The notes below the pieces were generated by a model, which was not told where the DNA came from, ran no database searches, and saw only the letters and a list, made by a program, of their open reading frames with translations. A stretch of 64,000 bases of DNA from Chthoniobacterales bacterium. GTDB taxonomy: Bacteria; Verrucomicrobiota; Verrucomicrobiia; Chthoniobacterales; UBA6821. This document shows, piece after piece, positions 1,177 to 64,000 of the stretch; the stretch's first letter is position 1, and every line of letters starts with the position of its first letter. Location: positions 11,419-75,418 of the forward strand of contig JBAPTI010000031.1 of assembly GCA_049282095.1 (NCBI GenBank), read 5' to 3'. Both the position numbers and the translations under genes were made by a program.

Positions 1177-1328
1177 GGTTAAAAAAGTTAGAAGGTTAAA
1201 AGGGTTCAAACCAAGTTCCGTGAAATCTGGATCAGAAAGCTAAAGCACTTTTGGGAACTGGAAGCCTTCGTGAACAAATGCCTCGGTTCACATTATAACT
1301 CTTTAACGTTCTAACTTTTTAACCTTTT
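1177..1328. repeat. Inverted repeat of GTTAAAAG/GTTAGAAG word arrays enclosing the palindrome GTGAAC-N10-GTTCAC (1270-1291)
   Basis: The left arm GGTTAAAAAAGTTAGAAGGTTAAAAG (1177-1204) is nearly the reverse complement of 1300-1328. Similar word arrays occur at 23658-23692, 29043-29168 and 58088-58123. Confidence 0.7.
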
Positions 1329-1463
1329 GCCTTTCAGTAATCCGCCTCCAATGCACCAAATCTAAGGCCGTTGCCCATTCGGGTTGGGCCACGCCGATCA
1401 CCCCAGGCGCTCCCAAATGGACAGCCACATCTTGACTGAAAGCTCTAATGATCCGCTTGAACT

Positions 1464-2225
1464 CTATTTCCGGAAGCCGGGGAGGATCTTGTTGAGTTCG
1501 TTTCCAAGTTGCTTGGCTCCCTGCTGCTGAAGTTGCTGGAGTCCCTGCTTGGCAAGGGCGTTGATACCCTCCTTCGCGGCGGCATTAATGAGGGGGGTGA
1601 TGATCTGCATGGCGACATCACGGGCCGAGATGCCCTTGCCGGCGGTGCCGATGTTCTGCAGGCGGATATCCGGGATGGAGATGGTCTGGTTGACTTTCTG
1701 GTCGAGGGCGCTGGCGGCAAGATGAACCTTCGTTCCCGAGATCACGACTTCCTTGATGACAAATTTCTTGGAGGAGGCTTCCTGGGGCGGTTTCTCCTCC
1801 TTGGTCTTGGAGGAGGATCCGGCGGACTGGATGTTCTGCATGAGTTTCCCGAGGTTGTTACCCGACGGAGTTCCGATCAGGGCGATCTCGGGGCCGCGGA
1901 TGATCACGGAATTCACGACGATCGGATCCTTGAGGAGCGTCTCCTTGTCGACGCTGACAGCGATGCTTCCGAGTTTCAGGGCGAAGGGACCCTTGTAGCC
2001 TTCGGGATTGCCGATCACGAAGCCGCTGAGTGCACCGCTTCCGGAGAATGGGGAGAGCCTTGCCGACGCCAACCGCACATCGGTCCTGGTGATGGTGGGG
2101 CCGACGGTCTCGACCGCCTTTTTGATCAGTGAGTTCAGCGAGAAGTAGAGATAGCCGATCGTCCCGATGAACAGGACAACGACCACGGCGACGAGGGAGA
2201 GGAGGATTTTTTTCATGGGATTCAA
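1464..2225 (-). CDS. Hypothetical membrane-anchored protein (N-terminal TM helix)
   Basis: 253-aa ORF with an N-terminal hydrophobic helix (ILLSLVAVVVVLFIGTIGYLYF). I do not recognise a family with confidence. Confidence 0.55.
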   Translation of the reverse strand: MNPMKKILLSLVAVVVVLFIGTIGYLYFSLNSLIKKAVETVGPTITRTDVRLASARLSPFSGSGALSGFVIGNPEGYKGPFALKLGSIAVSVDKETLLKDPIVVNSVIIRGPEIALIGTPSGNNLGKLMQNIQSAGSSSKTKEEKPPQEASSKKFVIKEVVISGTKVHLAASALDQKVNQTISIPDIRLQNIGTAGKGISARDVAMQIITPLINAAAKEGINALAKQGLQQLQQQGAKQLGNELNKILPGFRK

Positions 2226-2277
2226 TCAGCGCTTTTAGTGGATCTAGTAGAGGGGAGCTTTGGGATGGATGGCAAGG

Positions 2278-2934
2278 TCAGTCTTTCCGGAAGAACTTGT
2301 CCGGTGCATCGACGCTGGGGCAGAGGGAGCGGAGTTCGCATGCGGCGCAGTCGGGGTTGCGCGCCTTGCAGCGACGGCGGCCGTGCCAGATGAGCCAGTG
2401 GGAGAGAAGGGTCCATTGTTCCCGAGGGAAAAGTTTCATCAGGTCCTGCTCGACCTTGACCGGATCGGAGTTTGTGGTGAGTCCGAGTCGCAGGGAGAGG
2501 CGTCCGACATGGGTATCGACGACGACCCCCTCGTTGATCCCGAAGGCATTTCCGAGGACGACGTTGGCGGTCTTGCGACCCGCGCCGGGAAGGGCGGAGA
2601 GTTCGGCGATGCTGCGAGGGATCTCACCCCCATGCCGCTCCATCAGGGCGGCGCCCATGCCTCGGATCGACTTGGCCTTGTTCCGGTAGAATCCCGTGGA
2701 GCGGACGATCTCCTCGAGTTCCTCCTGAGGGATGGCCGCGTAGTCGGCGGCGGTCTTGCAGCGCTTGAAGAGTGCCTTGGTCACCATATTGACCCGGACG
2801 TCGGTGCACTGGGCGGAGAGGATCGTTGCGACGAGCAACTCGAGGGGATTTGAGAAATCGAGCTCGCAGTGGGCGTCCGGATAGATCCCGGGAAGTTCGG
2901 TGGCGAGGGTGTTGGTGCGTTCCTTGCGTGTCAT
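2278..2934 (-). CDS. nth: Endonuclease III (DNA glycosylase/AP lyase)
   Basis: HhH-GPD region LPGAGRKTANVVL and a C-terminal 4Fe-4S Cys cluster (CKARNPDCAACELRSLC), with Nth-like sequence along its full length. Confidence 0.9.
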   Translation of the reverse strand: MTRKERTNTLATELPGIYPDAHCELDFSNPLELLVATILSAQCTDVRVNMVTKALFKRCKTAADYAAIPQEELEEIVRSTGFYRNKAKSIRGMGAALMERHGGEIPRSIAELSALPGAGRKTANVVLGNAFGINEGVVVDTHVGRLSLRLGLTTNSDPVKVEQDLMKLFPREQWTLLSHWLIWHGRRRCKARNPDCAACELRSLCPSVDAPDKFFRKD

Positions 2935-2954
2935 AGGAGGAATTGGAGATTTTG

Positions 2955-4541
2955 TTACGGTTCGTTCACTCGAGCCGGCTCATACCCGCGGTGCAGGCTT
3001 AGGGTAAGGGGCTTGGTGATGCCGGGCAGGAAAACCTTCCGGGGCTTCGAGGGATTCGTGAAGAGCCACCCGAAATCACACCCGCTGCGGGGCCACTCGA
3101 CAACGAGTGCGGTCTTCCCCTTCCACGGCGCGTCATCGCTCCAGGGGAAGCGGCTTCGTCCGCGGATCGGCAGCGTCAGGAAGGGCTCCAGTTCGGGGGT
3201 GTGGTACACGAGGACTCCGTATGTCTGGTAGGTGTCGGTGCAGATGAAGTCTGCTCCCGACTCACGGAAGGAAGCGGCGGCCGCTTGGGCGACTTCCTTC
3301 GGTCCCATGATTTCGGAAAGGCGCGCCTGCAGTTCGGTGAGTGACTTGGTTGCCGAGGCGGCGATCTTTTCCGAGCCGGTCAGTCTGCCCAGGAATGCCA
3401 TGTCGGGAGTCGTGCTGCGCAGGGGGAGGGTGACTGCCCCGGGAAGCAGCAGGAGGGAGACCGCCGCCACGGCGCCGATGTCGGCGATCAGCAGAACGAT
3501 GAGTGCGGCTTTCCACCAGGCCCGACTGTAGCGCTCCCAGTCCCCCGCGACCATGATGAGGCCGCTCACGAAGGCGGCCATCGGCCAGTTGGCCTCGACA
3601 TGGGCCTTGCCCGCCGAGAACCCGAAGAAGAGCACCACCGTCCAGAAGAACGCTCCCAGGAAGCGGAAGCGACGATCACCCATCCGTGTCGCCGCCGTGC
3701 GGAAGCAGAGGAGTCCGAGGATGGGCGAGACCAGCACGACAAGGAAGACCGCGTAGTCGGCGAGGTTCTGGAGGTTGATGAGGCTGCGGTGTTCGTTGCG
3801 GAAGCCGTGGTTGAGTTGGTGGGCGAAGGAGGCCCAGTCATGGCGGCTGTTCCACCAGATCACGGGAGCAAAGAGAATCAGGGCGACGATCCCGGCCATC
3901 AGGCCGCCCAGAAAGAGACGCTTCCGGTTGCCGGGGCTTGTCAACCAGAGCAGTCCGAGTCCCGCAAAGAAGAGAACCATCGTGTATTTGCTCAGCATGC
4001 CCACACCCGCGGCCGCACCCGCCGCAAGCCACCATCCCATCGGGGCGCCTTCTTGGCTTCCACGCCATGCAAAGAGCATGGCGAATGCCCAGGCCGGAAT
4101 CAGCATGGTATCCGGCGTCATCAAAAAGGCATTCCCCGCGAAGATCGGGGCGAGTGTCAGAAAGATGCCGGCCCGGTTCCCTGCCGCCGTTCCGAAGAGT
4201 TCCTTCCCGAGCTGCCTCCCTGCCAGTGCCAGAAGGACCCCTGAGAGAATCGCTCCCAGTCGGACGGCCAGGGGATGATGCCCCAGCAGGGCGTGTCCCC
4301 CCGCGATCACCCAGGCGACAAGGGGAGGATGGTCGAAGTAACACGACTGAAGGTGGAGAGACCAGACCCAGTAGTAGCACTCGTCAAAGATGAGTCCCAG
4401 ATTGGCCCCGGCGACGAGTTTCCAGATCAGAGTGGCCAGTACGACCCCTAGGAACGTGGCATTCCTGTCGATCAGGGGAGGGGGGGCGCCTCGTTCGCCG
4501 GTGTTCCCAAAGTTCCGGTCAGTGGCAGGGTCGTTGGCCAT
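2955..4541 (-). CDS. ArnT/PMT-like (GT39/GT83-type) membrane glycosyltransferase
   Basis: 528-aa polytopic membrane ORF. The N-terminal loop FDECYYWVWS and many TM helices are typical of lipid-carrier-dependent 4-amino-arabinose/mannosyl transferases. Confidence 0.7.
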   Translation of the reverse strand: MANDPATDRNFGNTGERGAPPPLIDRNATFLGVVLATLIWKLVAGANLGLIFDECYYWVWSLHLQSCYFDHPPLVAWVIAGGHALLGHHPLAVRLGAILSGVLLALAGRQLGKELFGTAAGNRAGIFLTLAPIFAGNAFLMTPDTMLIPAWAFAMLFAWRGSQEGAPMGWWLAAGAAAGVGMLSKYTMVLFFAGLGLLWLTSPGNRKRLFLGGLMAGIVALILFAPVIWWNSRHDWASFAHQLNHGFRNEHRSLINLQNLADYAVFLVVLVSPILGLLCFRTAATRMGDRRFRFLGAFFWTVVLFFGFSAGKAHVEANWPMAAFVSGLIMVAGDWERYSRAWWKAALIVLLIADIGAVAAVSLLLLPGAVTLPLRSTTPDMAFLGRLTGSEKIAASATKSLTELQARLSEIMGPKEVAQAAAASFRESGADFICTDTYQTYGVLVYHTPELEPFLTLPIRGRSRFPWSDDAPWKGKTALVVEWPRSGCDFGWLFTNPSKPRKVFLPGITKPLTLSLHRGYEPARVNEP

Positions 4542-4703
4542 GGGGCGGCAGGATGGATTCCCCGCATCTTCAGGTCAAAGAGAAATCAGGATTGTCCTCT
4601 CTTCTTTGAGTTGACCGGTGTGACATGACCCGTCATAGTCACAAACCCCCGACACACTGTCATGGAACCCTTCCTGGCCTCTGCGTCGGGAATTCCCATT
4701 GCC

Positions 4704-5969
4704 ATGAACTCCGAATTTATCGCCATGCTCGACTACCTCGAGCGTGAAAAAGGTATCAAACGTGAGACCCTCATCGAGGCCATCTCCTCGGCCCTCGTTG
4801 CCGCCTCCAAGAAGAGCTTTTCCTGCTCCCGCGAGGTCCGCATCGACATCAATCCTAAGAGCGGCGCCATCCGCGCCTTCGCCAAGCCCCTTGTGGTCGA
4901 GACCGTTTCCAATCCCCAGGAGGAGATTTCCGTCGCCAAGGCCCGCCTCATCAACAAGGAGATCCAGCCCGGCGAAGAGATCGAGATCGAGGTGACGCCT
5001 CGCGACTTCGGCCGCATCGCTGCCCAGACCGCTCGTCAGGCGATTGCCCAGCGCATCCGTCAGATCGAGAAGGAGATGATCTACGAGGAGTTCAAGGACC
5101 GCGCCGGCGAGATCGTCAGCGGCACCGTCCGCCGATTCGACCGTAGCGATGTGGTTCTCGACCTTGGTAAGTTCGAGGGGATCATGCCCTCGCGTGAGCG
5201 CGTCAGCACCGAGGAGTACAACATCGGCGACCGCATCCGTGCCTACGTCGTCGCCGTGGAGAACGGCCCCCGCGGCCCCGAGATCATCCTCTCCCGCAGT
5301 CATCCCAACTTCATCCGCCGCCTTTTCGAGATCGAGGTCAGCGAGATCGCCGACCACACCGTCGAGCTTCGCTCCATCGCCCGCGAGGCCGGTTTCCGCA
5401 CGAAGATCGCCGTGCACAGCGCCAATGACAAGGTCGACCCTGTCGGCGCCTGCGTCGGCATGCGCGGAGCCCGCGTCAAGAATATCGTCCGCGAGCTCAA
5501 CAACGAGAAAGTGGACATCATTCGCTGGTATGAGGATCCCAAGGAGTTCGCCCGCGAGGCGCTCAAGCCGGCACGTATCCGCAGCATCGAGGTCGACGAG
5601 GCCACCCATACCCTCCGCATCGCCGTCGACAAGGAGGATCTTGCACTCGCCATCGGCAAGCGCGGCCAGAATGCCCGCCTCACCTCCCGACTCACCGGCT
5701 GGGAAATCGACATCAAGGAGGATCGCTCCGCTGCCGAAGCTTTCGAGCAGCAGCTTGGCGGTGCCGTCCATCAGCTCGCCGAGGCCCTGGGCATCTCCGA
5801 GGAGGAGGCCAAGACCCTTGCCGCCGGCGGCATGAATTCCGTCGACGTGGTCGTCACCGCCGAGGCTTCCGACATTGACGGAGTGCTTGGCTGCGGACCC
5901 GAGAAAGCCGAATCCATCCTCGCAGCCGCCAAGAGCCACCTCGAAGCGAAAGGACAGGCGGCGGCTTAG
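4704..5969 (+). CDS. nusA: Transcription termination/antitermination factor NusA
   Basis: N-terminal domain, S1 domain and two KH domains (GACVGMRGARVKNIVRELNNEKVDII; IGKRGQNARLTSRLTGWEIDI). The start is set at the Met of MNSEFIAMLDYLEREKGI rather than the ORF-track start at 4662. Confidence 0.92.
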   Translation: MNSEFIAMLDYLEREKGIKRETLIEAISSALVAASKKSFSCSREVRIDINPKSGAIRAFAKPLVVETVSNPQEEISVAKARLINKEIQPGEEIEIEVTPRDFGRIAAQTARQAIAQRIRQIEKEMIYEEFKDRAGEIVSGTVRRFDRSDVVLDLGKFEGIMPSRERVSTEEYNIGDRIRAYVVAVENGPRGPEIILSRSHPNFIRRLFEIEVSEIADHTVELRSIAREAGFRTKIAVHSANDKVDPVGACVGMRGARVKNIVRELNNEKVDIIRWYEDPKEFAREALKPARIRSIEVDEATHTLRIAVDKEDLALAIGKRGQNARLTSRLTGWEIDIKEDRSAAEAFEQQLGGAVHQLAEALGISEEEAKTLAAGGMNSVDVVVTAEASDIDGVLGCGPEKAESILAAAKSHLEAKGQAAA

Positions 5970-6017: not shown

Positions 6018-7469
6018 ATGGCCTCCAAAGTCCCCACATCCAAATCAACCGCCTCCAAAGGGGCGGGTTCCAAGGCCTCTGCATCCAAGGCTCCCTCCCG
6101 CGCTTCCCGCGCTGGAACAGTCTCCGGTGCCCGCGGTTCCTCCAGGTCTTCCTCCCCGAAGGATACCAAGGATGCCTCTTCAAAGTCCAAGGCCGCATCG
6201 CCTGCTTCTGACAAAGCCGAGGCCAAGAAGCCGGTCATCAAGACGGCCGACCTTCCCACCCTTTCCCTGATCGACGAACCCGCTCCGAAGAAGCGGGTCG
6301 CCTCCACGGGCAGGGCCCTTCCACGTATCGGGGAGAGCCAGCCTCCAGCGGCGCCCGTGCCTGTCGTGGAGGAAGAGGTCGAGGCTGTCCTCACGGAAGA
6401 AGCGGTGATCGCCGAGGATGCCGAGGGTGGTGAGCCCCGCAAGGTGATCCACATCAAGCCCCCGATCCAGATAAAGGAACTGGCAACCCAGATGGGAGTT
6501 CCTCCCTTCAAGATCATCAAGGATCTGATGGGAATGCAGATTTTCGCGAACATCAACCAGTCGGTCGAGCCCGAGGTCGCCGGCAAACTCTGCGATCTTT
6601 ACGGATTCGTTTTCGAGCGCGAGAAGCGCGTCGCAGGAGGCGGTGTCCACAAGGAGGAGAAGGTTGTCATCGAGCCTCCCAAGCCCGTCGAGGAAAAGCC
6701 CGAGGCGAAGAAGCTCCGCGGCCCCATCATCACCTTCATGGGCCATGTCGACCATGGCAAGACCTCCCTGCTCGACGCCATCCGTCGCGCCAAGGTCGCT
6801 TCGGGCGAGGCAGGCGGCATCACCCAGCGAATCGGCGCCTATTCCATCGACTGGAAGGGGAACCCCATCACCTTCATCGACACCCCGGGCCATGCGGCCT
6901 TCTCCGCCATGCGGGCACGCGGTGCGAATGTCACCGACATCGTCGTCCTTGTCGTTGCAGCCGACGACGGTCTCATGCCGCAGACGCTTGAGGCTCTCAG
7001 CCATGCCCAGGCCGCCAAGGTCACGATCATGGTCGCCATCAATAAGTGCGATCTCAAGACGGCAAACCCCGACCGCGTGAAGCAACAACTCCAGGAGAAG
7101 GGACTTGTTCCCGAGGATTGGGGAGGCGACACCGTGGTCTGCGAGGTTTCCGCGGCCACCGGCAATGGAATCGACAACCTGCTCGAGATGATGTCCCTTC
7201 AGGCCGAGGTTCTGGAACTCAAGGCCAACCCCGACATTCCCGGACGCGCCAGCGTCATCGAGGCCCAGGTCGAGGCGGGACGCGGCCCCACGGCCACCGT
7301 CATCGTCAACACTGGCACCCTCCGCGTCGGCGATCCGTTCATCTGCGGCAACTACTGGGGCAAGGTCAAGCAGCTCATCAACGAGGATGGCGTCGCCTTC
7401 AAGGCCGCCGGTCCCGCCATGCCCGCCAAGGTTCTGGGGCTCAGCGGTCTTCCCAACGCCGGCGACTAA
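6018..7469 (+). CDS. infB: Translation initiation factor IF-2, N-terminal part (N-domain, G domain, domain II), ended by an in-frame TAA
   Basis: GTPase motifs [17 protein letters not shown] and NKCD. The ORF stops at TAA 7467-7469 in the middle of the conserved ...LPNAGD-x-LVV... segment. Confidence 0.9.
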
Positions 7470-10426: not shown

Positions 10427-10516
10427 TTCACAGGGATGAAAGGGATGAAGGAGATATCATGAGCGCTATCCCCTTAACTCTTTCCCTATCCCTTGTATCC
10501 CCTTCATCCCTGTGAA
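10427..10516. repeat. Hairpin element copy B (TTCACAGGGATGAAAGGGATGAAGGAGAT ... ATCCCTTGTATCCCCTTCATCCCTGTGAA)
   Basis: The arms are near-identical to copy A (463-564) but the interior is unrelated. The right arm contains the predicted ribF GTG start (10512). Confidence 0.8.
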
Positions 10517-15303: not shown

Positions 15304-15328
15304 TCCCGGGGGACTTTTCCCCTTCCTA

Positions 15329-15604
15329 GGGAAGCGCTGATTAAATCCCATGAAGGCCGCTGAAGAGCATTTGCTGATTTTTGAAGGCGCGAGTGCTGGG
15401 CGATACCCGCAGCGGTCTCGCCCGAGCGAGCAACGCGGCAAAAATCAACAAATGGTTTCAGCCCTGCGGGTTGCGGAGATAACAGGCCGGGGTTTGCGTT
15501 GGCTTGGCACTTACAGCCCGCTGCGGGGATGCTCGTGCCAAGCCGCCTTGCCCGCGGCCCATTCTTCCCGCAACGGCCTCTATGCGATTTAATCAGCGTT
15601 TCCC
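15329..15604 (+). mobile_element. MITE, full copy (276 bp), 19-nt TIRs, TA flanks
   Basis: Left TIR GGGAAGCGCTGATTAAATC and right TIR GATTTAATCAGCGTTTCCC. A TA sits at 15327-28 and at 15605-06. The element is near-identical to 27240-27516 and 52515-52790. Strand denotes an arbitrary element orientation. Confidence 0.85.
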
Positions 15605-15611
15605 TAACGAC

Positions 15612-20135: not shown

Positions 20136-20201
20136 GGGGAAATGATGAAGCAAGAATTATGAATGAAGAATTATGAAGAAGCTAGGAGCTAGGAGATGGG
20201 A

Positions 20202-21701: not shown

Positions 21702-21707
21702 GAGAGG

Positions 21708-21741
21708 GAAAGGATGAAGGAAGAATGAAAAATGAAAAAGG
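21708..21741 (-). promoter_or_regulatory. 34-nt CU-rich leader element 6 nt upstream of the xylB ATG, near-identical to 28950-28983
   Basis: The sense strand reads CCTTTTTCATTTTTCATTCTTCCTTCATCCTTTC. There is one mismatch to the element upstream of miaB. Confidence 0.6.
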
Positions 21742-21960
21742 ATGAATCTGCTTTAGGAAAGGGCGGGAAGGGGCGTTGTCCCCAAAATCTTATTGAATAG
21801 TTTCGTCAAGAGATTGGATTTTGGGCTATTCGCTATTCTGAATGTGCTTCCATGGGATTTCCACCACCGAGCCCTTTGTCCCGAGAGGGCGGACAGAGAG
21901 TGGAGTGAGATTTTGAATCAGAAAGCAGGAAGACAGGAGGGGAGAAGGCGGTCTTTTGAC

Positions 21961-22064
21961 CGGCCGGGGGCTGTTTAGGCTTGGCGCTTTGCTTGCCCGG
22001 TCGCTGCTTCGCATCCGCTACGGCTTTCCGCAACGGGCTCTATGCGATTTAATCAGCGGTTCCC
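21961..22064 (+). mobile_element. MITE fragment (one end only, module-containing subtype)
   Basis: It ends in CTCTATGCGATTTAATCAGCGGTTCCC and contains the GCTTGCCCGGTCGCTGCTTCGCATCCGCTACGG module also present in the 43899-44433 and 57698-57795 copies. Confidence 0.75.
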
Positions 22065-22146
22065 TTGGATTACTTCTTGCCAAGTGCTTTTGGGATGGGC
22101 ATTCTACCCGACCACCTGAGACCAATTTCCGGCAACAATTCCTGAC

Positions 22147-26534: not shown

Positions 26535-27238
26535 CGCGCGAAGTAGCTGAGATTCTCAAGCTCGATGGCGAGGTTGACGTTGTTCACGGCAACGGTCTCG
26601 GGCAACTGGAGGAGCGTGGGCGAGAAGTTGAGGAGGGCATGGATACCGCTTCCGACGAGATGTTCGGCAACCCGCTGGGCCTCCTCCCCTGGGACGCAGA
26701 GGATCGCCATGCGGATGTCATGCTGCCTGATGACCCTGCGCATCTCCTCCATCCGCTGGACTTCAATCCGACCCCTCTGTGCTTTTTTCGGCTTCTTGTC
26801 GAAGGCCGCGATGATCTCGAACCCCTCCTTGGCAAATCCCCTGTAGCTCAGGAGCGCCTGTCCGAGGTTACCGGCACCGACCAAAATGACAGGTTGGAGG
26901 CTCGCGCGCCCCAGAATTTCCTCAAGGCGGTTACGGAGCAGGATGACTTCGTAGCCGGTGCCGCGTTTCCCAAGCGGGCCGCAGCAGGCGAGATCCTTGC
27001 GAAGTTGGGCCGGTTGCACGCCGGCCACGCCGGCGAGAGCCGTTGAGGAGACGATGCTTGTGCGGTTGGCCACCATGAGGCCCAGGCATCGCAGATAGAG
27101 GGAGAGCCGGTAGACGGTCTTCTTGGGAATCTCCCCGGCGGAATGGGCCTGTCGCTCATGATGCCTGACCCGCGGTACGTGTTCCTGCCGGGGGGATTTC
27201 CCGGTCACCTTGAGTGAACGATGGCCTTCGCGGCTCAT
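26531..27238 (-). CDS. rex: Redox-sensing transcriptional repressor Rex
   Basis: wHTH (IPKKTVYRLSLYLRCL) plus Rossmann VILVGAGNLGQALL. The start ATG 27236-38 is supported by the reconstructed ATGA overlap with miaB. The ORF-track N-terminal extension lies in the MITE. Confidence 0.85.
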   Translation of the reverse strand: MSREGHRSLKVTGKSPRQEHVPRVRHHERQAHSAGEIPKKTVYRLSLYLRCLGLMVANRTSIVSSTALAGVAGVQPAQLRKDLACCGPLGKRGTGYEVILLRNRLEEILGRASLQPVILVGAGNLGQALLSYRGFAKEGFEIIAAFDKKPKKAQRGRIEVQRMEEMRRVIRQHDIRMAILCVPGEEAQRVAEHLVGSGIHALLNFSPTLLQLPETVAVNNVNLAIELENLSYFAR

Positions 27239-27239
27239 A

Positions 27240-27516
27240 GGGAAGCACTGATTAAATCGCATAGAGGCCGTTGCGGGAAGAATGGGCCGTGGGCAAGGCG
27301 GCTTGGCGCGAGCATCCCCGCAGTGGGCTGTAAGCGCCAAGGCAACAAAGCCCCCCGGCCGGTTATCTCCGCAACCCGGAGGGCTGAAGCCATTTGTCGA
27401 TTTTTGTGGCGTTGCTCGCTCGGGCGAGACCGCTGCGGGTATCGCCCAGCACTCGCGCCTTCAAAAATCAGCAAATGCTCTTCAGCGGCCTTCATGGGAT
27501 TTCATCAGCGCTTCCC
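27240..27516 (-). mobile_element. MITE, full copy (277 bp), TA flanks, inserted at the miaB/rex junction
   Basis: TIRs GGGAAGCACTGATTAAATC and GATTTCATCAGCGCTTCCC. A TA sits at 27238-39 and at 27517-18. The interior is collinear with 15329-15604 in reverse orientation. Confidence 0.88.
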
Positions 27517-28944
27517 TAAGGTCTCCGATCCCTCTCCCAGTATGGCGGGATCACCATAGAGGGTGGAGGCGCTGGCGGAGGTGATCTCGACATCGAAGAT
27601 CTGACCATGGAAGCGGCTCCCTCCCTCCAAGATCACGATCTTGTTGGTGCGGGTGCGACCGGCCAGTCGGGAGGGGTCGTTCCTGCTCGGGCCCTCGCAG
27701 AGGATTTGCTGCCTGGTGCCGACGCATGCCTCGAGGTGGCGTGAGGCGGAGGCGTTCACCACCGCGAGGAGGTCCTGATTGCGGAACTCCTTCACCTCTT
27801 CGGAAAGCTGTCCGTCCATCACGGCGGCGGGTGTGTCGCCGCGCTTGGAGTAGCGGAAGACAAAGGCACCGTCGAAGCCGATCTCCTCGGCAAGGTCGCG
27901 GGTGGCCCTGTAATCCTCATCCGTTTCGCCCGGGAAGCCGACGATGATGTCGGTGCTGACTGCGATGCCGGGGCGGGCAGCCCGGAGATCCGCCACCAGC
28001 TTTCGGAAAGAGGCTGCCGTGTAGGGACGGTGCATGGCCTTGAGGATCCGGTCGCTGCCAGACTGGAGGGGAAGGTGGACATGCTCCATGAGTTTCGGAA
28101 GCCGCGCGAAGCACTCCACGAGATCCTTGCGGAATCCCATCGGATGGGGGGAGGTGAAGCGGATGCGTTCGATTCCCTCGACGGCGTTGAGCGCCTCCAG
28201 GAGTTGCACGAAGGGGCTCTTGCCATCCACCTTGGGGAATTCGTGGCGTCCGTAGAGATTGACGATCTGGCCGAGCAGCGTCACCTCCTTGATCCCTCTG
28301 CCGGCGAGGGTGCGGGCTTCCTCGACGATTTCTGCGATCGGTCGGCCGCGCTCGGGTCCGCGCGTCGTCGGGACAATGCAGAAGGTGCAGTGCATGTTGC
28401 ATCCCTGCATGATTGAGATGAACGCGGTGGCGGCCTTTTTCTCGGTGGGGAGATGCTCGCGGATGGTGTTCTGCGATCCCTCCTCGGCGGCGATGTCGAC
28501 GATCGGGGCCATTGGGGCCATTGGGGCGATCTGATTGATGCTTCCCCCCAGTTCGGTTGCATCCTCGGCGGCAAAGGCCTCTTCACGACGGCGGAGCGCC
28601 TCTTCCACATGGTCGGCGACACGGTGAAACTTCTGGGTCCCCACCACGAGATCGACATGGGGTGAGCGGTTCCCCAGATCATCCCCCAGGCGCTGCGCCA
28701 TGCATCCCATGTAGCCCAGGACGAGCTTCGGCTTCTCCCGGCGGAGCTTGCGGAGCATGCCCATCTTCCCGATCGCTTTCTGCTCGGCCATGTCGCGGAC
28801 GCTGCACGTGTTGAGCAGGATCACGTCGGCATCCCGCTCGTTGTCAACGAGACGGTGACCGCGGTCCTGAAGATCGCGCGCCACCTGTTCGGAGTCGCGC
28901 TCGTTCATCTGGCAACCGTAGGTCTTGATGAAGACGCTGGGCAT
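27505..28944 (-). CDS. miaB: tRNA-i6A37 methylthiotransferase MiaB
   Basis: MTTase N-domain (FIKTYGCQMNERDSE), radical-SAM GCNMHCTFCIVP and a TRAM domain. The last 3 codons plus the stop (GKR*) are encoded by the MITE TIR. The start is set at ATG 28944. Confidence 0.9.
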   Translation of the reverse strand: MPSVFIKTYGCQMNERDSEQVARDLQDRGHRLVDNERDADVILLNTCSVRDMAEQKAIGKMGMLRKLRREKPKLVLGYMGCMAQRLGDDLGNRSPHVDLVVGTQKFHRVADHVEEALRRREEAFAAEDATELGGSINQIAPMAPMAPIVDIAAEEGSQNTIREHLPTEKKAATAFISIMQGCNMHCTFCIVPTTRGPERGRPIAEIVEEARTLAGRGIKEVTLLGQIVNLYGRHEFPKVDGKSPFVQLLEALNAVEGIERIRFTSPHPMGFRKDLVECFARLPKLMEHVHLPLQSGSDRILKAMHRPYTAASFRKLVADLRAARPGIAVSTDIIVGFPGETDEDYRATRDLAEEIGFDGAFVFRYSKRGDTPAAVMDGQLSEEVKEFRNQDLLAVVNASASRHLEACVGTRQQILCEGPSRNDPSRLAGRTRTNKIVILEGGSRFHGQIFDVEITSASASTLYGDPAILGEGSETLGKR

Positions 28945-28949
28945 AGGAG

Positions 28950-28983
28950 GAAAGGATGAAGGAAAAATGAAAAATGAAAAAGG
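28950..28983 (-). promoter_or_regulatory. 34-nt CU-rich leader element 5 nt upstream of the miaB ATG, near-identical to 21708-21741
   Basis: The sense strand reads CCTTTTTCATTTTTCATTTTTCCTTCATCCTTTC. Confidence 0.6.
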
Positions 28984-29162
28984 GTCTGTTATCAGGAAAT
29001 TCAACCCCGATCCCGGACCCTCGTTGAAGTGTGAAACTGTGAAAAAAAGGTTAAAACTGAACGCCGATCGGAGTTCGGGTTAAAAGTGTGAAATTCAGGG
29101 TGATTAACCGGAGCATTGCGCTGCCGTCTGCCCGTTCTAACTCTTTTAACTGTTCAACCTTT

Positions 29163-43815: not shown

Positions 43816-43898
43816 GGGTTGAACGTAATCCATACTTCCGATTCCGCCATCGAAAAGATTCGTGAATCGCGGGGATTCTCCGACAGGGAAGATCCTTA

Positions 43899-44433
43899 AA
43901 GCGCTGATTAAATCGCATAGAGGCCGTTGCGGGAAGCCGTAGCGGATGCGAAGCAACGACCGGGCAAGCCATGGGCCGCGGGCAAGGCGGCTTCGCGGGC
44001 GCATCCCCGCAGTGGGCTGCCGTAACGGATGCGAAGCAACGGCCGGGCAAGCAAAGCGCCAAGCCAACACAGTTGGCCCCCGTGCCACGCCACGAAGCCA
44101 AAGGCTTTGTGGCCCCCGGCTGGTTATCTCCGCAACCCGGAGGGCTGAAGCCAGTTGTCGATTTTTGCCTCGCCGTCTCCCGACGGTCTCGTCCTCCGGA
44201 CTGCTTCGCAGGCTACGACGCGGCTCCCGCCGCTCGTCGTTGCGGCGATGCTCGCTCGGGCGAGACCGCTGGGGGTATTGACTCGCTCGCTCCCGCTCGG
44301 CTCGCCCTGACGGGTTTGCCTCCGGCAAATCTACCCAAGCCGCACCCGCAGCTACGTGTTGCCCAGCACTCGCGCCTTCAAAAATCAGCAAATGCTCTTC
44401 AGCGGCCTTCATGGGATTTAATCAGCGTTTCCC
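43899..44433 (-). mobile_element. MITE, mosaic long copy (~535 bp) with at least 5 internal insert modules
   Basis: It shares both ends and the backbone with the 276-bp copies. It carries two direct copies of the 33-nt module CCGTARCGGATGCGAAGCAACGRCCGGGCAAGC plus other inserts. The left TIR lacks the terminal GGG. Confidence 0.8.
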
Positions 44434-44474
44434 TTGGCAGCGCGATGCCCATGATGCATATTCTTTTTCTCCGC

Positions 44475-50151: not shown

Positions 50152-52515
50152 ATGAATTCCCCAGTTCCCATGACTCCTGCCGCGAATCATCCTGCCCCGG
50201 GGCATGGCCATCACGCCCATGCGGGCGGATTTGACTGGCGGGAGTATTACTTTGCGCTGAAGGCCCGTGCATGGATCGTCATTGCGTGCGTGATCCTTGC
50301 GACGCTCTGGGGAGTCTTCTCTGCGGCGACCCAGCAGGGACTCTACACCGCGCGCTGCGTCCTCTTCATCGAACAGGTCAAGAGCCGGGTGCTCAACACC
50401 AAGGTGGAGGATGTCCGCGATGACCAGATCAAGTCGATCGACATGATCAACACCCTCGTCGACCTCCTCCGCAGCTATCCCTTCGCGCTTCGTGTGGTCA
50501 ACCACCTCCAGCTTGCCCGCGACCGCGAGTTTCTGGCCGCGGTCGGACTTTCCGGGAAAGAGACATCCCCGGAACGCGCCGCCGGCGCCCTTGCGAGGAT
50601 GGTCAGCCCCAGCTACCGGCTCAACACCCGCCTCATCGACATCAACCTCACCACCCGGAACCCCTCCCTCTCCGTCAAGCTGGCCAATGCCTACGCCGAG
50701 GAATATCTCCGCTACATCCATGACCAGAGGGCCGAGGCCACCCGTTCCGCCAGCACCTTCCTCATGGAAGAGTCCGACAGGTTGCGCAAGAAGATGAAGG
50801 CATCCGAAGAGGGGATGCAGAACTTCCGCGAGCGCGAGCGTGCGGCATCCATGGAGTCGATGCTGCTCGAGGCGCAGAACCAGCTCACCCAGCTCTCCGC
50901 CCGCCAGAGCGCCATCCAGTCCAAGCTCACCCAGATCAACAGTGACCTCGAGATCGCCCGCGCGAACAAGGGGAAGACCGAGGAACTCCTCCGCCTTCCC
51001 AGCGTCGCCGGAGAGCCCAAGGTTGCCGCGCTGGTCGCCCAGCAGTCGAGCCTGGACAAGCAGTTCATCCTCATCCAGCAACGCTACCGCGCCAAGCACC
51101 CCGCCTACATCAACATCAAGACCCAGCTCGACCTCGGCAAGTCCGAGCTGGACAAGGTGCTCAACGACATCGTCGGCCTTCTCGATTCCATCCGCAGCAG
51201 CCTGCTGGCCCAGCAGGCCGCCGCCAATGCCGAGCGCGAGAGCGCCGAGAAGCGCCTGCTCGAGGTCACCAGCAAGTCCATCGAGTACAACGACCTCAAG
51301 CGCGAGTTGGAGAGCGACACCGCCCTCTACGGCGCCGTCATTGGACGCATCAAGGAAGTCGATGTCACCAAGGAACTCTCCGAATCCCCCGTCGTGATCC
51401 AGGAAAAGGCGAGCGGAGCCTTCCCTGTCAGCAAGCCCCCCCTCAAGATCCTCCTCCAGGCCATGCTATCCGGATTGGCCGTGGGTGTCGGCATCGTCCT
51501 TGCCCTGCACAAGCTTGATACCAGCACCAAGAGCGTCGATCAGCTCGAGCAGCTCACCGGTATCGACGTCGCCGCGGCCATCCCGCAGATCGGCGGCAAT
51601 GCCGCCGCCCGCTTCGGCATCTTCACCAAGGAACAGCAGCAGCAACTGCTCGGATCCTGGAAATCGGCCAAGACCATGATCCTTGACGCATCGGTGCCTC
51701 CGCGTGCGCGACTCTCGCGGATCCACGAGATCCTCAGTCCAGCCATCGCCATGATCGCCCACCCCCACATCTCCACCGTGCTTCCGCGCGGCGGCGAGTT
51801 GGTGGTGAAACAGGACCGCAGCGGCGTCGTGGCGGAAGCCTTCCGCTCGCTTCGCGCCAGTGTGGCCATGAACGCCCGCGTCGAGAGCCAGCGCTCCTTC
51901 CTCCTGACCAGCGCCATCCCGTCGGAGGGCAAGTCCTTCTGCACCTCCAACTTCGCCGTCACCCTCGCACAGCAGGGACTCAGGACTCTCCTCATCGATG
52001 CCGATCTCCGCAAGCCCACCATCTCCGGCATCTTCTTCGGGATGAACCGCAAGCCCGGACTCACCGAAGTCCTGATCGGATCGGCCTCATTGACGGATGC
52101 CGTGCACTCCTCGGGCGTCGAGGGACTCTCGATCCTCACCGCCGGGGGGCGCTCCTCCAATCCCTCCGAACTACTGGCCGGAAAGCCCTTCCGTGATTTC
52201 ATGGTCGAGGCCCTCAGGCAGTATGACCGCGTCGTCATTGATTCCGCCCCCATCCTGGCTGTGAGCGACACGCTGCTTCTCGCCCCCTCCGTCGATGTCG
52301 TCTGCCTCGTAGTCCGCGCCTTCATGACCCCGCGCAAGATGATCCAGCGGGCTCTCAAGTCGCTTCAGGATATCCATGTGAAGCCCGCCGGACTTGTCTT
52401 CAACTGCATCCCTGCCGGCAGCGAGGCCTATTCCTACTCCGGCAAGTATTACGGCTCCTACGGCAGCAAAGGAGTGTATGGAAGTCCGGTTGAAGGGGAA
52501 AAAGCCGAAGGTTAA
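50152..52515 (+). CDS. Polysaccharide co-polymerase / BY-type tyrosine autokinase (Wzc/GumC-like)
   Basis: N-terminal Wzz-type TM and coiled-coil periplasmic domain. The C-terminal kinase has Walker A SAIPSEGKS, Walker B VVIDSAP and a Tyr-rich tail (YSYSGKYYGSYGSKGVYG). Confidence 0.88.
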   Translation: MNSPVPMTPAANHPAPGHGHHAHAGGFDWREYYFALKARAWIVIACVILATLWGVFSAATQQGLYTARCVLFIEQVKSRVLNTKVEDVRDDQIKSIDMINTLVDLLRSYPFALRVVNHLQLARDREFLAAVGLSGKETSPERAAGALARMVSPSYRLNTRLIDINLTTRNPSLSVKLANAYAEEYLRYIHDQRAEATRSASTFLMEESDRLRKKMKASEEGMQNFRERERAASMESMLLEAQNQLTQLSARQSAIQSKLTQINSDLEIARANKGKTEELLRLPSVAGEPKVAALVAQQSSLDKQFILIQQRYRAKHPAYINIKTQLDLGKSELDKVLNDIVGLLDSIRSSLLAQQAAANAERESAEKRLLEVTSKSIEYNDLKRELESDTALYGAVIGRIKEVDVTKELSESPVVIQEKASGAFPVSKPPLKILLQAMLSGLAVGVGIVLALHKLDTSTKSVDQLEQLTGIDVAAAIPQIGGNAAARFGIFTKEQQQQLLGSWKSAKTMILDASVPPRARLSRIHEILSPAIAMIAHPHISTVLPRGGELVVKQDRSGVVAEAFRSLRASVAMNARVESQRSFLLTSAIPSEGKSFCTSNFAVTLAQQGLRTLLIDADLRKPTISGIFFGMNRKPGLTEVLIGSASLTDAVHSSGVEGLSILTAGGRSSNPSELLAGKPFRDFMVEALRQYDRVVIDSAPILAVSDTLLLAPSVDVVCLVVRAFMTPRKMIQRALKSLQDIHVKPAGLVFNCIPAGSEAYSYSGKYYGSYGSKGVYGSPVEGEKAEG

Positions 52516-52790
52516 GGAAGCGCTGATTAAATCGCATAGAGGCCGTTGCGGGAAGAACTGGCCGCGGGCAAGGCGGCTTGGCACGAGCATCCCCGCAGCG
52601 GGCTGTAAGTGCCAAGCCAACGCAGCCCCCGGCCTGTTATCTCCGCAACCCGCAGGGCTGACGTCATTTGTCGATTTTTGCGGCGTTGCTTGCTAGGGCG
52701 AGACCACTGCGGGTATCGCCCAGCGCTCGCGCCTTCAAAAATCAGCAAATGCTCTTCAGCGGCCTTCATGGGATTTAATCAGCGTTTCCT
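52515..52790 (-). mobile_element. MITE, full copy (276 bp), TA flanks
   Basis: TIRs AGGAAGCGCTGATTAAATC and GATTTAATCAGCGTTTCCT. A TA sits at 52513-14 and at 52791-92. The first element base completes the TAA stop of the Wzc-like gene. Confidence 0.88.
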
Positions 52791-52847
52791 TAAGGAACCG
52801 CAGTTCCCTGCTCTCACTTTCTCCTTGGTTCTTTCTTCCCCTTCAGG

Positions 52848-52885
52848 GTTTTAGCCTTTAGCCTTCGGCCTTTAAACCTTTCCCC
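52848..52885 (+). repeat. Period-7 leader array GTTTTAG CCTTTAG CCTTCGG CCTTTAA ACCTTTC CCC directly abutting the uxs ATG
   Basis: Read directly from the sequence. The same GTTTTAG-initiated array type occurs at 54625, 56319 and 57816. Confidence 0.75.
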
Positions 52886-53821
52886 ATGCGTATCCTCATC
52901 ACCGGCGGAGCCGGATTCCTAGGTTCCCACCTCTGTGACCGCCTCATCGAGCAGGGTCACGACATCATCTGCCTCGACAACTTCTTCACCGGTCGCAAGG
53001 CCAACATTCAGCATCTCGTCGGCAATCCCCACTTCGAACTCGTCCGTCACGACGTGATCGACCCGTTCAAGTTCGAGGTCGATCGCATCTACAACCTCGC
53101 CTGCCCCGCTTCCCCTCCTCACTACCAGTACAACCCTATCAAGACCATGAAGACCTCCGTGGTGGGGGCCATCAACTGCCTCGGCCTCGCCAAGAGGGTC
53201 AAGGCACGCGTCTTCCAAGCCTCCACCTCCGAGGTTTACGGGGATCCCAACGTCCATCCCCAGCCCGAGGCCTACTGGGGCCATGTGAACCCCATCGGAC
53301 TACGCTCCTGCTACGACGAGGGGAAGCGCGCGGCCGAGACCCTCTTCTTCGACTATCACCGCGAGAACGGGGTCGACATCCGCGTCATCCGCATCTTCAA
53401 CACCTACGGCCCCCGCATGCTCCCCGACGACGGACGCGTCGTCTCCAACTTCATCGTCCAGGCACTTCAGGGCAAGGACCTCACCGTCTACGGAGAGGGC
53501 TCCCAGACACGCTCCTTCTGCTATGTCGACGACCTCGTCGACGGCTTCATGCGCTTCATGGAGCAGGAGAAGATCGTCGGCCCCATGAACCTCGGTAACC
53601 CCGGCGAGTTCACCATGCTCCAGCTCGCCGAACTCGTCCTCAAGAAGGTAGGCGGCAAGAGCAAGATCACCCACCTCCCGCTTCCTTCCGACGATCCGAA
53701 GCAGCGCCGTCCCGACATCACCCTCGCCAAGGAAACCCTCGGCTGGGAACCGAAAGTCCCTCTCGAAGCCGGCATTGAGAAGACCATCGCGTATTTCAGC
53801 GAAGCGCTTAAGAAAGGCTAA
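52886..53821 (+). CDS. uxs: UDP-glucuronate decarboxylase (UDP-xylose synthase)
   Basis: SDR with [14 protein letters not shown], the catalytic YDEGKR motif, and UXS-like sequence along its full length. Confidence 0.9.
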
Positions 53822-53910
53822 AGGCGAAAGGCTAAAGGCTAAAGGCTAAAGGCTAAAGGCTAAAGGCTAAAGGCTAAAGGCTAAAGGCTAAAGGCGAAAG
53901 GCGAAAGGAT
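53813..53910 (+). repeat. Heptanucleotide tandem array, 14 units (AAAGGCT x10, AAAGGCG x3, AAAGGAT x1)
   Basis: Units were counted from 53813 in steps of 7. The array starts in the last codons of uxs and contains its TAA stop (53819-21). Confidence 0.95.
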
Positions 53911-56162: not shown

Positions 56163-56390
56163 TCAGGCCCCTGCTTTTCCAAGCGTGAAGCCCCTTCATC
56201 CAGACCCCCCGCTGGTAAAACCCTCCCCGGTTGCCAAGGGCGGCAGCATTGCCCGTCATCCCGCCGCCTTGGTTGCCTTTCCTGGCCTTTCGACAACCCT
56301 CAACCTCCCTCATCTCGTGTTTTAGCTTTTAACTTTCCGCTTTTTCACTTTCCCCCCTAACAGCCTAACAGTCTTCAGTCTAAAAGCCTT

Positions 56391-56867
56391 ATGCAAACCC
56401 TCACTCCCTTCCAGCGTGAATCCGTGGAGCTATTCGTGGGGGCCTTTGCGGTTCTCTCCCTGCCGCGTTCCCTGGGGGAGATCTACGGCCTCATCTACAG
56501 CAGTGAGGAGCCCTTGGCCTTCGACGATCTTGTCAACCGCCTCGACCTGAGCAAGGGCTCCGTGAGCGAGGGTTTGCGCCTGCTACGCTCCCTCGGGGCC
56601 GTGAACCTCGTACATGTTGCGGATTCCCGCAAGGAGCATTTCACCGCCGAGACCAGCCTCCGCAAGCTAGCCGGCGGCTACCTCCGCGACCGCATCGAGC
56701 CCTACCTGAGTGGAGGGGAGGCACGGATCAACTCCCTCCGTAAGGTATGCGACAACGACACCTCACGGTCCGATTTCCAAGAGAAGCGCATCAACCAACT
56801 CCTCTCCTGGCACCGCTTCTTCAGCAAAGTCCTGCCTGTCTTCAAGACCCTCGCAGGGAAGACATAA
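56391..56867 (+). CDS. GbsR/MarR-like winged-helix transcriptional regulator
   Basis: 158-aa ORF. LPRSLGEIYGLIYSSEEPLAFDDLVNRLDLSKGSVSEGLRLLRSLGAV resembles the GbsR-type wHTH. Confidence 0.65.
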   Translation: MQTLTPFQRESVELFVGAFAVLSLPRSLGEIYGLIYSSEEPLAFDDLVNRLDLSKGSVSEGLRLLRSLGAVNLVHVADSRKEHFTAETSLRKLAGGYLRDRIEPYLSGGEARINSLRKVCDNDTSRSDFQEKRINQLLSWHRFFSKVLPVFKTLAGKT

Positions 56868-57682: not shown

Positions 57683-57697
57683 AAGCCTGCCTTCCTT

Positions 57698-57795
57698 GGG
57701 AGCCGCTGATTAAATCGCATGGAAGCCGTTGCGGGAAGCTGTAACGGATGCGAAGCAACGGCCGGGCAAGCCATGGACCGCATCCCTGCGGCTTG
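57698..57795 (-). mobile_element. MITE fragment (one end, module-containing subtype)
   Basis: GGGAGCCGCTGATTAAATCGCATGGAAGCCGTTGCGGGAAG followed by the CTGTAACGGATGCGAAGCAACGGCCGGGCAAGC module. The other end is absent. Confidence 0.75.
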
Positions 57796-57926: not shown

Positions 57927-58043
57927 ATGTTCAACCGGTTTGTGGGTCAGAGTTTTGAAAAAGACTTTGCCAAGCCCTTTGTCCACATCCTCTTTGGCGC
58001 TCGGCAGACCGGTAAGTCTTCACTGGTCCGAAGTCTGATGTGA
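57927..58043 (+). pseudogene. Truncated 5' fragment of an AAA-ATPase gene (AAA_14/DUF4143-type)
   Basis: It encodes MFNRFVGQSFEKDFAKPFVHILFGARQTGKSSLVRSLM then a stop. There is a Walker A GxxxxGKS but only 38 codons, whereas full-length family members are about 400 aa. Confidence 0.6.
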
Positions 58044-58301
58044 TGAACCACGACCAGATCCGCAGACTCTGATCCGGCCAATTTTTCGCTTTGTAACGCT
58101 TCAACGTTCTAACCTTTTCAACCTCCTCGAGACCCCCTCCTTCCCTAACAGTCCAACAGCCTTTTGTCTGGCGATCTCCCCGGATCAGCCATCCTCGATC
58201 TGCAGATCTTCGGACTACTCGCCTAAGCCTCGTATGACATCGACGAAGGAGAGGCAAGCAAAGCCACTTACCCAAGCGCCTTTTGTCTAAAAGCCTCATC
58301 C

Positions 58302-60691: not shown

Positions 60692-60724
60692 TCTTCCGGA
60701 AAATTGTTCTTAAGAGGTAATCAG

Positions 60725-63929: not shown

Positions 63930-64000
63930 AAGTTCTGATCGTCGAGGATGCCCTCAACAGTCTGCAGGGACATTGGTTTCAGTATATCTCCGATCTTGTC
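63926..64000 (+). CDS. 5' end of a further ORF (MKVLIVEDALNSLQGHWFQYISDLV...), truncated by the window edge
   Basis: It has an ATGA overlap with the preceding GT gene. Only 25 codons are visible, so function is unknown. Confidence 0.4.
   Translation, partial: MKVLIVEDALNSLQGHWFQYISDLV

Follow-up and report, generated by a model that had tools for sequence, protein, structure and literature searches.

Why do two genes of unrelated function carry an almost identical pyrimidine-rich sequence immediately upstream of their start codons? The question is raised by a 64,000-nt stretch of DNA from a Chthoniobacterales bacterium (Verrucomicrobiota; GenBank assembly GCA_049282095.1, contig JBAPTI010000031.1), called the window below, in which the initial annotation had pointed to a near-identical 34-nt leader before the genes xylB and miaB. 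A Shine–Dalgarno (SD) sequence is a purine-rich, GGAGG-like motif located 4–10 nt before the start codon and complementary to CCUCC of 16S rRNA. How start codons are chosen in bacteria without SD sequences is an open question, which has been answered in part for Bacteroidia and not for Verrucomicrobiota (PMC10798248); Verrucomicrobiales and Akkermansia are reported to lack SD usage, the mechanism replacing it being left open (PMC10798248, PMC10783764). The sequence shared by xylB and miaB is a real element with a fixed orientation and position relative to start codons, in a lineage without SD sequences. As a short, RNA-sized sequence frozen by selection before unrelated genes, it offers an experimental entry into SD-independent initiation; in contrast, other leaders of the lineage keep only their composition and a 7-nt rhythm.

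Sequence and Position of the Element

The 34-mer CCTTTTTCATTTTTCATTCTTCCTTCATCCTTTC is located at 21708–21741 on the minus strand, and a second copy with one mismatch at 28950–28983 on the same strand. The gaps between the 34-mer and the ATG are 6 nt for xylB (ATG at 21701) and 5 nt for miaB (ATG at 28944), just as first described. A search of the window allowing up to 3 mismatches revealed exactly these two sites, and none in 100 dinucleotide-preserving shuffles. The block common to both copies is 35 nt long (Table 1), spans −5 to −40 relative to the start codons and is identical at 34 of 35 positions (97%). The flanks of the two copies are unrelated, and no larger repeat was found around the block. 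The description as a single 34-nt leader holds for the sequence and not for the extent: the conserved unit is 41–49 nt long in xylB, and it is part of a lineage-wide class of 7-nt-periodic pyrimidine-rich leaders.

In the sense direction, the xylB region reads gCAGA TTCATCC TTTTTCA TTTTTCA TTCTTCC TTCATCC TTTCCCT CTC-ATG, and the element is an imperfect heptad array (TTCATCC TTTTTCA TTTTTCA TTYTTCC TTCATCC TTTCC). The self-identity of the core is highest, among the lags tested, at lag 7 (25 of 35 positions), and Tandem Repeats Finder reports period 7 at both copies. The 49 nt before the ATG of xylB include one G, at −47, the 46 nt next to the ATG being G-free, and the 40 nt before the ATG of miaB include no G at all. 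These regions offer no SD sequence, no G being present within 46 nt of either ATG; the initial annotation had likewise seen no obvious one. The sequences just before the ATG, CCCTCTC for xylB and CCTCCT for miaB, resemble the anti-SD rather than the SD sequence. Neither leader contains ATG, GTG or TTG. The xylB block is 86% pyrimidine and its leader has a predicted minimum free energy (MFE) of 0 kcal/mol; both leaders are predicted to stay unpaired when 60 nt of coding sequence is added (z-scores about −0.4 to +1.1).

Occurrence in Other Genomes

The genome-wide pattern search suggested in the initial annotation was run with the query TTTTCATTNTTCCTTCATCC on one genome per species from 185,579 species. 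It returned 58 loci, most of them chance matches in AT-rich Firmicutes, while about 17 were in Verrucomicrobiota metagenome-assembled genomes (MAGs) labelled Verrucomicrobiia, Spartobacteria or Chthoniobacterales. A further 35 loci came from a metagenome scan. The host group of the element is apparently freshwater Verrucomicrobiota, as the contigs of L066, L085, L093, L008, L078 and L084 seem to derive from lake samples. Related MAGs include 2–3 strict copies each, most of them in one orientation directly before start codons. The MAG JBEIJN01, a sister species with 92% xylB nucleotide identity to the source, has exactly three, upstream of xylB, miaB and a GNAT acetyltransferase gene (L051, L046 and L048; L-numbers label the sequences compared here).

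The core was found upstream of xylB orthologs in 13 sequences (counting the window plus its duplicate contig L001), of miaB orthologs in six, of a gene for a 163-aa GNAT acetyltransferase in four, and of a PAS-HisKA histidine-kinase gene in one. All of these 24 instances have the pyrimidines on the sense strand, the end of the core being 7–17 nt ahead of the ATG.

Two kinds of repeats were considered and rejected. A larger dispersed repeat without relation to start codons, the outcome that the initial annotation had set against its own claim, does not fit the unrelated flanks, the 2–3 copies per genome, the location of most copies upstream of genes and their orthologous positions. A miniature inverted-repeat transposable element (MITE) or repetitive extragenic palindromic (REP) repeat does not fit the few copies, the sense orientation before the ATG, and the lack of an inverted repeat and of a fold. 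The true MITEs and hairpin repeats of the window look quite unlike the 35-nt element.

Heptamer arrays of the TTCATCC type were also observed outside Verrucomicrobiota, in L011 (Pyrinomonadaceae, Acidobacteria; 1279–5383) and in L016 and L045 (Latescibacterota). In L011 they lie in and near the spacers of a tRNA cluster (e.g., tRNA-Thr to tRNA-Asn), with the purine strand as the tRNA sense strand, and in Latescibacterota they are upstream of a gene that keeps an AAGGA SD-like motif.

Conservation and Selection

Relatives keep the element at the orthologous sites before xylB, miaB and GNAT, which answers the question of conservation in relatives that came with the initial annotation. Between two xylB clades whose four-fold degenerate sites are 40–47% identical, the 41-nt block CAGATTCATCC...CTTCATCCTT is 100% identical, and the DNA just upstream of it cannot be aligned and has MITE insertions at varying places. 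In miaB, a 55-nt block differs by no more than one 1-nt deletion between lineages whose four-fold sites are 52% identical, and the sequence upstream of this block is not common to them. For GNAT, lineages with 38% four-fold-site identity keep the core with one change. The ubiX leader served as a control; it is unalignable between the same xylB clades (66 vs 40 nt), yet it is C/T-rich and G-poor. Because 41 nt are identical while four-fold sites have diverged and the ubiX leader is unalignable, the exact sequence of the element is, as judged from these alignments, under strong purifying selection. Since the control leader has diverged and kept its composition, the element is constrained in its exact sequence and ordinary leaders in their composition only. 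The ubiX leader of the window also differs from that of L051 (92% xylB DNA identity) by a 14-nt, two-heptad indel, which shows turnover of the unconserved leader arrays by slippage.

At the single variable base of the core, 12 of 13 xylB copies have C, and the six miaB and four GNAT copies have T without exception. The base is thus largely gene-specific across species, which argues against homogenisation by gene conversion. This pattern suggests independent maintenance of the individual copies, as would be the case for sites read by a single trans-acting partner. The number of units is equal in most xylB, miaB and GNAT orthologs, with the exception of L040, which has extra TTTCATCC units. Phase variation at a contingency locus was considered and rejected, the units being imperfect and their number constant in most orthologs.

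Leaders of the Lineage

Does the absence of SD sequences extend beyond the two genes? SD-like tetramers were found near the start of 22 of 130 genes, far upstream of 15 and inside 28; they are not enriched before starts. Enrichment of hexamers before starts is inflated by orthologs and is used only qualitatively. In the sense direction, the leaders of the window are 64% pyrimidine and contain 17.5% G. Without xylB and miaB, their identity at lags 7 and 14 is still 0.322 and 0.330, against 0.274 ± 0.014 in shuffles. A start-anchored position matrix from 116 crude gene starts was too noisy to reveal a phase-locked pattern. Among the 7-nt-periodic pyrimidine-rich leaders of this lineage, the 35-nt element is the most regular and the best conserved. 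The TTCAT words that the initial annotation listed upstream of ubiX and folD are present, and the ubiX leader matches the element at 27 of 34 positions (20138–20171).

Other word families also occur in leaders. The leader of the window gene at 56391 contains arrays of CCTAACAG-type 8-mer words (CCTAACAGCCTAACAGTCT...; 56306–56397), and L060, which represents the alaS context in another lineage, has similar 8-mer arrays downstream of its copy of the element (6250–6310). Different genes in different genomes thus have leaders from the same word families. An epimerase/dehydratase gene of the window (52886–53821) has an (AAAGGCT)x13.7 array (53813–53908) that begins at its stop codon, and a 5' leader (52850–52885) composed of (TTTAGCC)x3.6, the reverse-complement word. 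Because the leader word is the reverse complement of the 3' array word, both ends of the transcript would be complementary.

A Putative Translation Initiation Region

What does the element do? We give about an even chance to the reading that it is a single-stranded 5' leader that constitutes the translation initiation region and to which a sequence-specific factor binds. Its transcription and the identity of its partner are both inferred here. The tract of about 45 nt is pyrimidine-rich, almost G-free and predicted not to fold, and because it is open and holds no AUG, GUG or UUG, the 30S subunit would encounter an accessible landing site and then only one possible start codon. The heptad words UUCAUCC, UUUUUCA and UUYUUCC would be read by a sequence-specific binder of single-stranded RNA, for which ribosomal protein S1 or another OB-fold or KH-type protein is the most plausible candidate. 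Binding would set the efficiency of initiation on the mRNAs with the element. Transcription would start at or upstream of CAGATTC for xylB, and upstream of CCCTTTTTCA for miaB. If the element is a docking site for the ribosome or S1, it would represent a novel type of initiation signal, and also a transferable part for gene expression in a phylum that is difficult to manipulate.

Several lines of evidence point to such a leader. The 24 instances above agree in strand and in having the core close to the ATG. The selection on exact sequence, seen against a ubiX leader constrained in composition only, and the SD-poor, pyrimidine-rich and 7-nt-periodic leaders of the lineage count in its favour as well. 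The near absence of G, the lack of internal start codons, the predicted unfolded state and the heptads running up to the ATG are consistent with it. Heptad arrays also occupy short same-strand spacers, where no promoter need exist. All relatives examined have the xylB–ubiX pair (66-nt spacer) side by side on one strand, apart from an extra gene between the two in L097, and in L099 the genes abut; the 58-nt spacer between a MutL-like gene and the GNAT gene on the same strand is filled by a heptad array. In the clade of L021, a promoter recognised by eye (TTGCGT-N16-AAGAAT, N16 being TTCATCGGTCGATGAA) ends 5 nt before AGATTC, and the invariant block would therefore be the entire 5' untranslated region (UTR); this promoter is below the threshold of the scanner and allows a weak inference only.

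The same 16 nt, in L021 and L049, are a perfect 16-bp palindrome, about 60–80 nt upstream of xylB, between TTGCGT and AAGAAT or CAGAAT. L026 has the variant TTCATCGCTCGATGAA. The palindrome is operator-like and absent from the clade of the window.

Other candidates for a leader function were rejected. A leaderless mRNA does not fit CCTTTC at −12 to −7 before the ATG, which is not a −10 element. Neither does a riboswitch, attenuator or leader-peptide RNA, given that the leaders fold no better than shuffled sequences, contain no ATG, GTG or TTG, and that the sole match in an Rfam scan of the window was a tRNA. Small ORFs on the antisense strand (MKEE*, MKEK*, MKKDES...) are not conserved between gene contexts and were also rejected.

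A broader proposal is speculative and rather doubtful: heptad leaders of the form (UUYNNCC)n-UUUCC-AUG might be a start-selection signal that replaces the SD sequence in this branch of Verrucomicrobiota, with the invariant 35–49-nt module as a high-affinity dock for a multi-domain binder of single-stranded RNA (one word per domain; S1 or a cold-shock (Csp)- or KH-type protein) that defines a small regulon at the level of translation. Words of different families (UUCAUCC and UUUAGCC, for example) would be swapped between genes, and their complements in 3' hairpins and tails could add leader/anti-leader pairing.

Points Against a Leader and the Promoter Alternative

A number of observations weigh against a leader at the RNA level, and some of them would suit a promoter. 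It is possible, though less probable than a leader, that the element acts in DNA as a compact core promoter with an overlapping operator, reused before several genes, where RNA polymerase and a factor would read the direct ATGAA/TTCAT repeats and the 5' UTRs would be about 11–16 nt. In that case it would define a small regulon with an unusual promoter architecture.

The first observations concern the position. One lineage has the element about 190 nt upstream of the alaS ATG, a distance that fits a promoter better than a ribosome landing site, and a Prosthecobacter copy follows a terminator-like hairpin and is 43 nt before its gene. Start-codon adjacency is thus common and not obligatory. The alaS-context loci are near-identical to one another and so give no independent conservation signal; Rfam revealed nothing convincing in that context.

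The second group concerns the missing promoter. The sigma-70 scanner calls none at or near either window copy, and because none is found upstream, the element could itself be the promoter. The scanner also calls none in the relatives, including the by-eye promoter of the L021 clade, and in the literature no transcription start maps for Verrucomicrobia were found. The miaB copy and a Prosthecobacter copy each have a terminator-like hairpin a short distance upstream, which implies, barring read-through, a promoter near the element or within it. In L026, a MITE insertion some 95 nt ahead of the xylB ATG likewise leaves only these 95 nt for the promoter of xylB. The GC content of the genome is about 59%, and no other stretch before these genes is as AT-rich as the element; CATTCT, the second hexamer of a promoter-like block before rplS, is also included in it (TTTTTCATTCTTCC). 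In line with an operator, the four TTCAT words of the xylB copy resemble the direct-repeat sites of response regulators; compared with OmpR/PhoB-type operators (at least 2 repeats, 10–11 bp centre-to-centre), their spacings are 10, 7 and 11 nt, and the miaB copy has only three such words.

The third group concerns the sequence requirement. To our knowledge, letter-for-letter invariance over 35–41 nt exceeds what is needed by S1, which is a low-specificity binder. In L095 (81% XylB identity), the xylB leader is an ATG-abutting heptad array made of different words (TTTAGCC, TTCGGCC and TTCAGCC), the miaB leader is (TTCATCC)x3, and TTTAGCC-type words also form the leader of the window gene at 52886. 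The element is absent from relatives at 76–78% and about 65% XylB identity. The specific sequence is accordingly dispensable over longer evolutionary times, and word families are interchangeable on that scale.

A promoter would in turn leave much unexplained. No TTGACA/TATAAT-like pair 16–18 bp apart was found by the scanner, the element has no TA dinucleotide and only weak CATNNT words, and no consistent first hexamer is located 16–18 bp upstream of CATTYT (the candidates across xylB, miaB, GNAT and the kinase gene are CAGATT, TAACAG, GAGATT and CACAAA). In the kinase copy, the distance from AGATTC to CATTCT is shorter by one heptad, at odds with a fixed promoter spacing. Every base is conserved to within 9 nt of the ATG, including those downstream of any plausible −10 hexamer, and arrays of like style fill the intercistronic spacers of conserved gene pairs. 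Of the roles listed in the initial annotation (an S1-type enhancer, a target shared by a regulator or small RNA (sRNA), and a promoter-proximal element), the evidence leans toward a leader or initiation region in RNA, with the promoter/operator kept as a possible rival.

Less Probable Explanations

Base pairing to an RNA would demand exact conservation over tens of nucleotides, and the leader is predicted to be single-stranded and accessible. It could on these grounds be the shared target of a trans-acting antisense sRNA with a purine-rich seed (GGAUGAAGGAA...), possibly derived from hairpins in 3' UTRs with GGGAUGAAG-rich arms, for example 463–564 and 10427–10516, two strongly folding structures just 3' of genes that include the complementary word GGATGAAGGAG. 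This is unlikely, however, because scans of both strands of related MAGs revealed no antisense-oriented 20–21-nt core outside gene leaders. The hairpin match is 10–11 nt only, is not above chance (4 vs 2.2 expected) and is locked in a stem of −46 to −56 kcal/mol.

The hairpins at 463–564 and 10427–10516 are two copies of a long hairpin repeat composed of GGGATGAAG and CTTCATCCC words, with −56 and −46 kcal/mol (z −6.9 and −6.6), and each is located just 3' of a plus-strand gene. The initial annotation had noticed the core word in both arms. The word CTTCATCC and its complement are indeed present; a functional link to the leaders found no support beyond this short word, since GGATGAAGGAA with up to 1 mismatch occurs no more often than expected by chance.

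Low G content, lack of structure and abundant YC dinucleotides are general properties of Rho-utilisation (rut) sites, and the leader shares all three. A rut-like loading site, at which Rho would terminate early when translation initiation is slow, is nevertheless very improbable; the tract has more U than C and covers only about 45 nt, its composition is that of most leaders in the genome, and no requirement for an exact sequence is known for rut sites, which would leave the invariance unexplained.

Hardly credible is the absence of any specific function, with heptamer arrays generated by slippage and made alike by chance convergence or recent gene conversion: short-period tandem arrays do fill many intergenic regions of the window, the ubiX indel separates close relatives and TTCATCC arrays occur in Acidobacteria and Latescibacterota, but the copies are identical across lineages with saturated synonymous sites and unalignable adjacent non-coding DNA, the largely gene-specific variable base speaks against ongoing gene conversion, and the number of heptads is constant in most orthologs.

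Genes and Other Features of the Window

The coordinates are summarised in Table 1. Close homologs of the window kinase are named xylulokinase by the Joint Genome Institute (JGI), and an exact-protein look-up of the window MiaB returned no match. The promoter-like block before rplS is followed by ACCCGACCAC and persists in relatives with XylB identities as low as 76%; the second hexamer departs from the canonical sequence and reads CACGTT in the most distant relative, L097. This block has the appearance of a conserved promoter in this lineage.

Table 1. Positions in the window of the element, its genes and adjacent features.
Feature	Position	Strand	Details
xylB copy of the 35-nt core	21707..21741	-	Sense CC TTTTTCA TTTTTCA TTCTTCC TTCATCC TTTCC; window search and repeat-family comparison
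miaB copy of the 35-nt core	28949..28983	-	T at the single variable position (TTTTTCC)
41-nt block CAGATTCATCC...CTTCATCCTT	21710..21750	-	100% identical between xylB clades
Whole start-proximal xylB region, CAGATTC to ATG	21702..21751	-	49 nt with one G; predicted MFE 0 kcal/mol
miaB conserved block, core plus upstream TGAATTTCCTGATAACAGACCC	28949..29003	-	Interlineage comparison
xylB, FGGY carbohydrate kinase, 499 aa	20202..21701	-	Pfam; gene of the first copy
miaB-type methylthiotransferase, 479 aa from ATG 28944	27505..28944	-	Pfam UPF0004, radical SAM, TRAM; gene of the second copy
xylB–ubiX spacer, the ubiX leader, 66 nt	20136..20201	-	Diverged family member at 20138-20171 (27/34), ending TTCTTGCTTCATCATTTCCCC-ATG; conservation control
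Imperfect hairpin then T-run (GAACTCCGATCGGCGTTC AGTTTTAACCTTTTTTT), possible terminator	29042..29076	-	Between the upstream glycosyltransferase gene and miaB; by eye, not called by the scanner
rplS promoter-like block TTGCCA-N17-CATTCT	22077..22105	+	Conserved in relatives; context only

A MITE-like family of about 285 bp with terminal inverted repeats (GGGAAGCGCTGATTAAATC...) is found at 15321–15605, 27232–27517, 52507–52791 and 43888–44434, with fragments at 22024–22065 and 57690–57781. The same family is inserted at differing points between rplS and xylB in L026, L077 and L013. The region 58000–64000 is an island of low GC content at third codon positions (0.38–0.55 vs about 0.8 elsewhere), and this differing composition suggests that its genes were horizontally acquired.

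Comparison with Known Systems

With its tandem heptamers between genes, the element is reminiscent of cyanobacterial short tandemly repeated repetitive (STRR) sequences and of contingency loci. STRR heptamers form high-copy intergenic arrays without a fixed relation to starts, and contingency loci vary in their unit number. The element differs from both in its unit number, fixed in most orthologs, in its 2–3 copies per genome and in the location of most copies next to an ATG.

Putative mobile promoters (Nijveen, Matus-Garcia and van Passel; PMC3575422) were defined by an identity of 80% or more across 50 nt or more in the region from −150 to −50 before the start codon. As in that class, near-identical upstream sequences occur before non-homologous genes of one genome and across related taxa. 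In contrast, the element covers 35–49 nt at −1 to −50, a zone excluded in that study (PMC3575422), and so falls outside the class in length and position. It also shows no sign of mobility, and its copies appear ancient and are orthologously conserved.

The cold-shock protein CspB of Bacillus subtilis binds pyrimidine-rich heptanucleotides with the consensus GTCTTTG/T (PMC1904285). The footprint of OB-fold cold-shock proteins, about 7 nt of single-stranded nucleic acid, matches the 7-nt word period, which is a lead only; unlike the CspB consensus, which includes G, the heptad words of the element are G-free.

In the lack of SD enrichment and in unstructured leaders, the lineage is similar to Bacteroidia with SD-independent initiation and to Verrucomicrobiales that have lost the SD sequence (PMC7797042, PMC10798248). 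The initiation regions of Bacteroidia are A-rich with Kozak-like signals, according to a title cited in PMC10798248. Unlike these, the leaders here are C/U-rich, often with CCUUUCC just before the ATG.

The closest parallel is with S1. Target sites of S1 upstream of SD sequences were reportedly described in E. coli by Boni et al. in 1991. As in S1-dependent leader enhancers, a single-stranded pyrimidine-rich tract lies just 5' of the start, the SD sequence is weak or absent, and there is no secondary structure; in its sequence the element has what an S1-type enhancer requires, a pyrimidine-rich tract, predicted to be unpaired, next to the start codon. We know of no S1 sites with comparable sequence conservation. 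Unlike them, the 35-nt element is invariant over 35–41 nt, consists of heptad words, is G-free over the 46 nt ahead of the ATG and is common to unrelated genes. SD-independent, S1-dependent initiation is on record for cyanobacteria, as far as the citation of Mutsuda & Sugiura 2006 in PMC8136920 conveys. In its proposed mechanism, the element would function most like S1-dependent pyrimidine-rich leaders, with its invariance, its heptads and its reuse across genes as the distinguishing characters.

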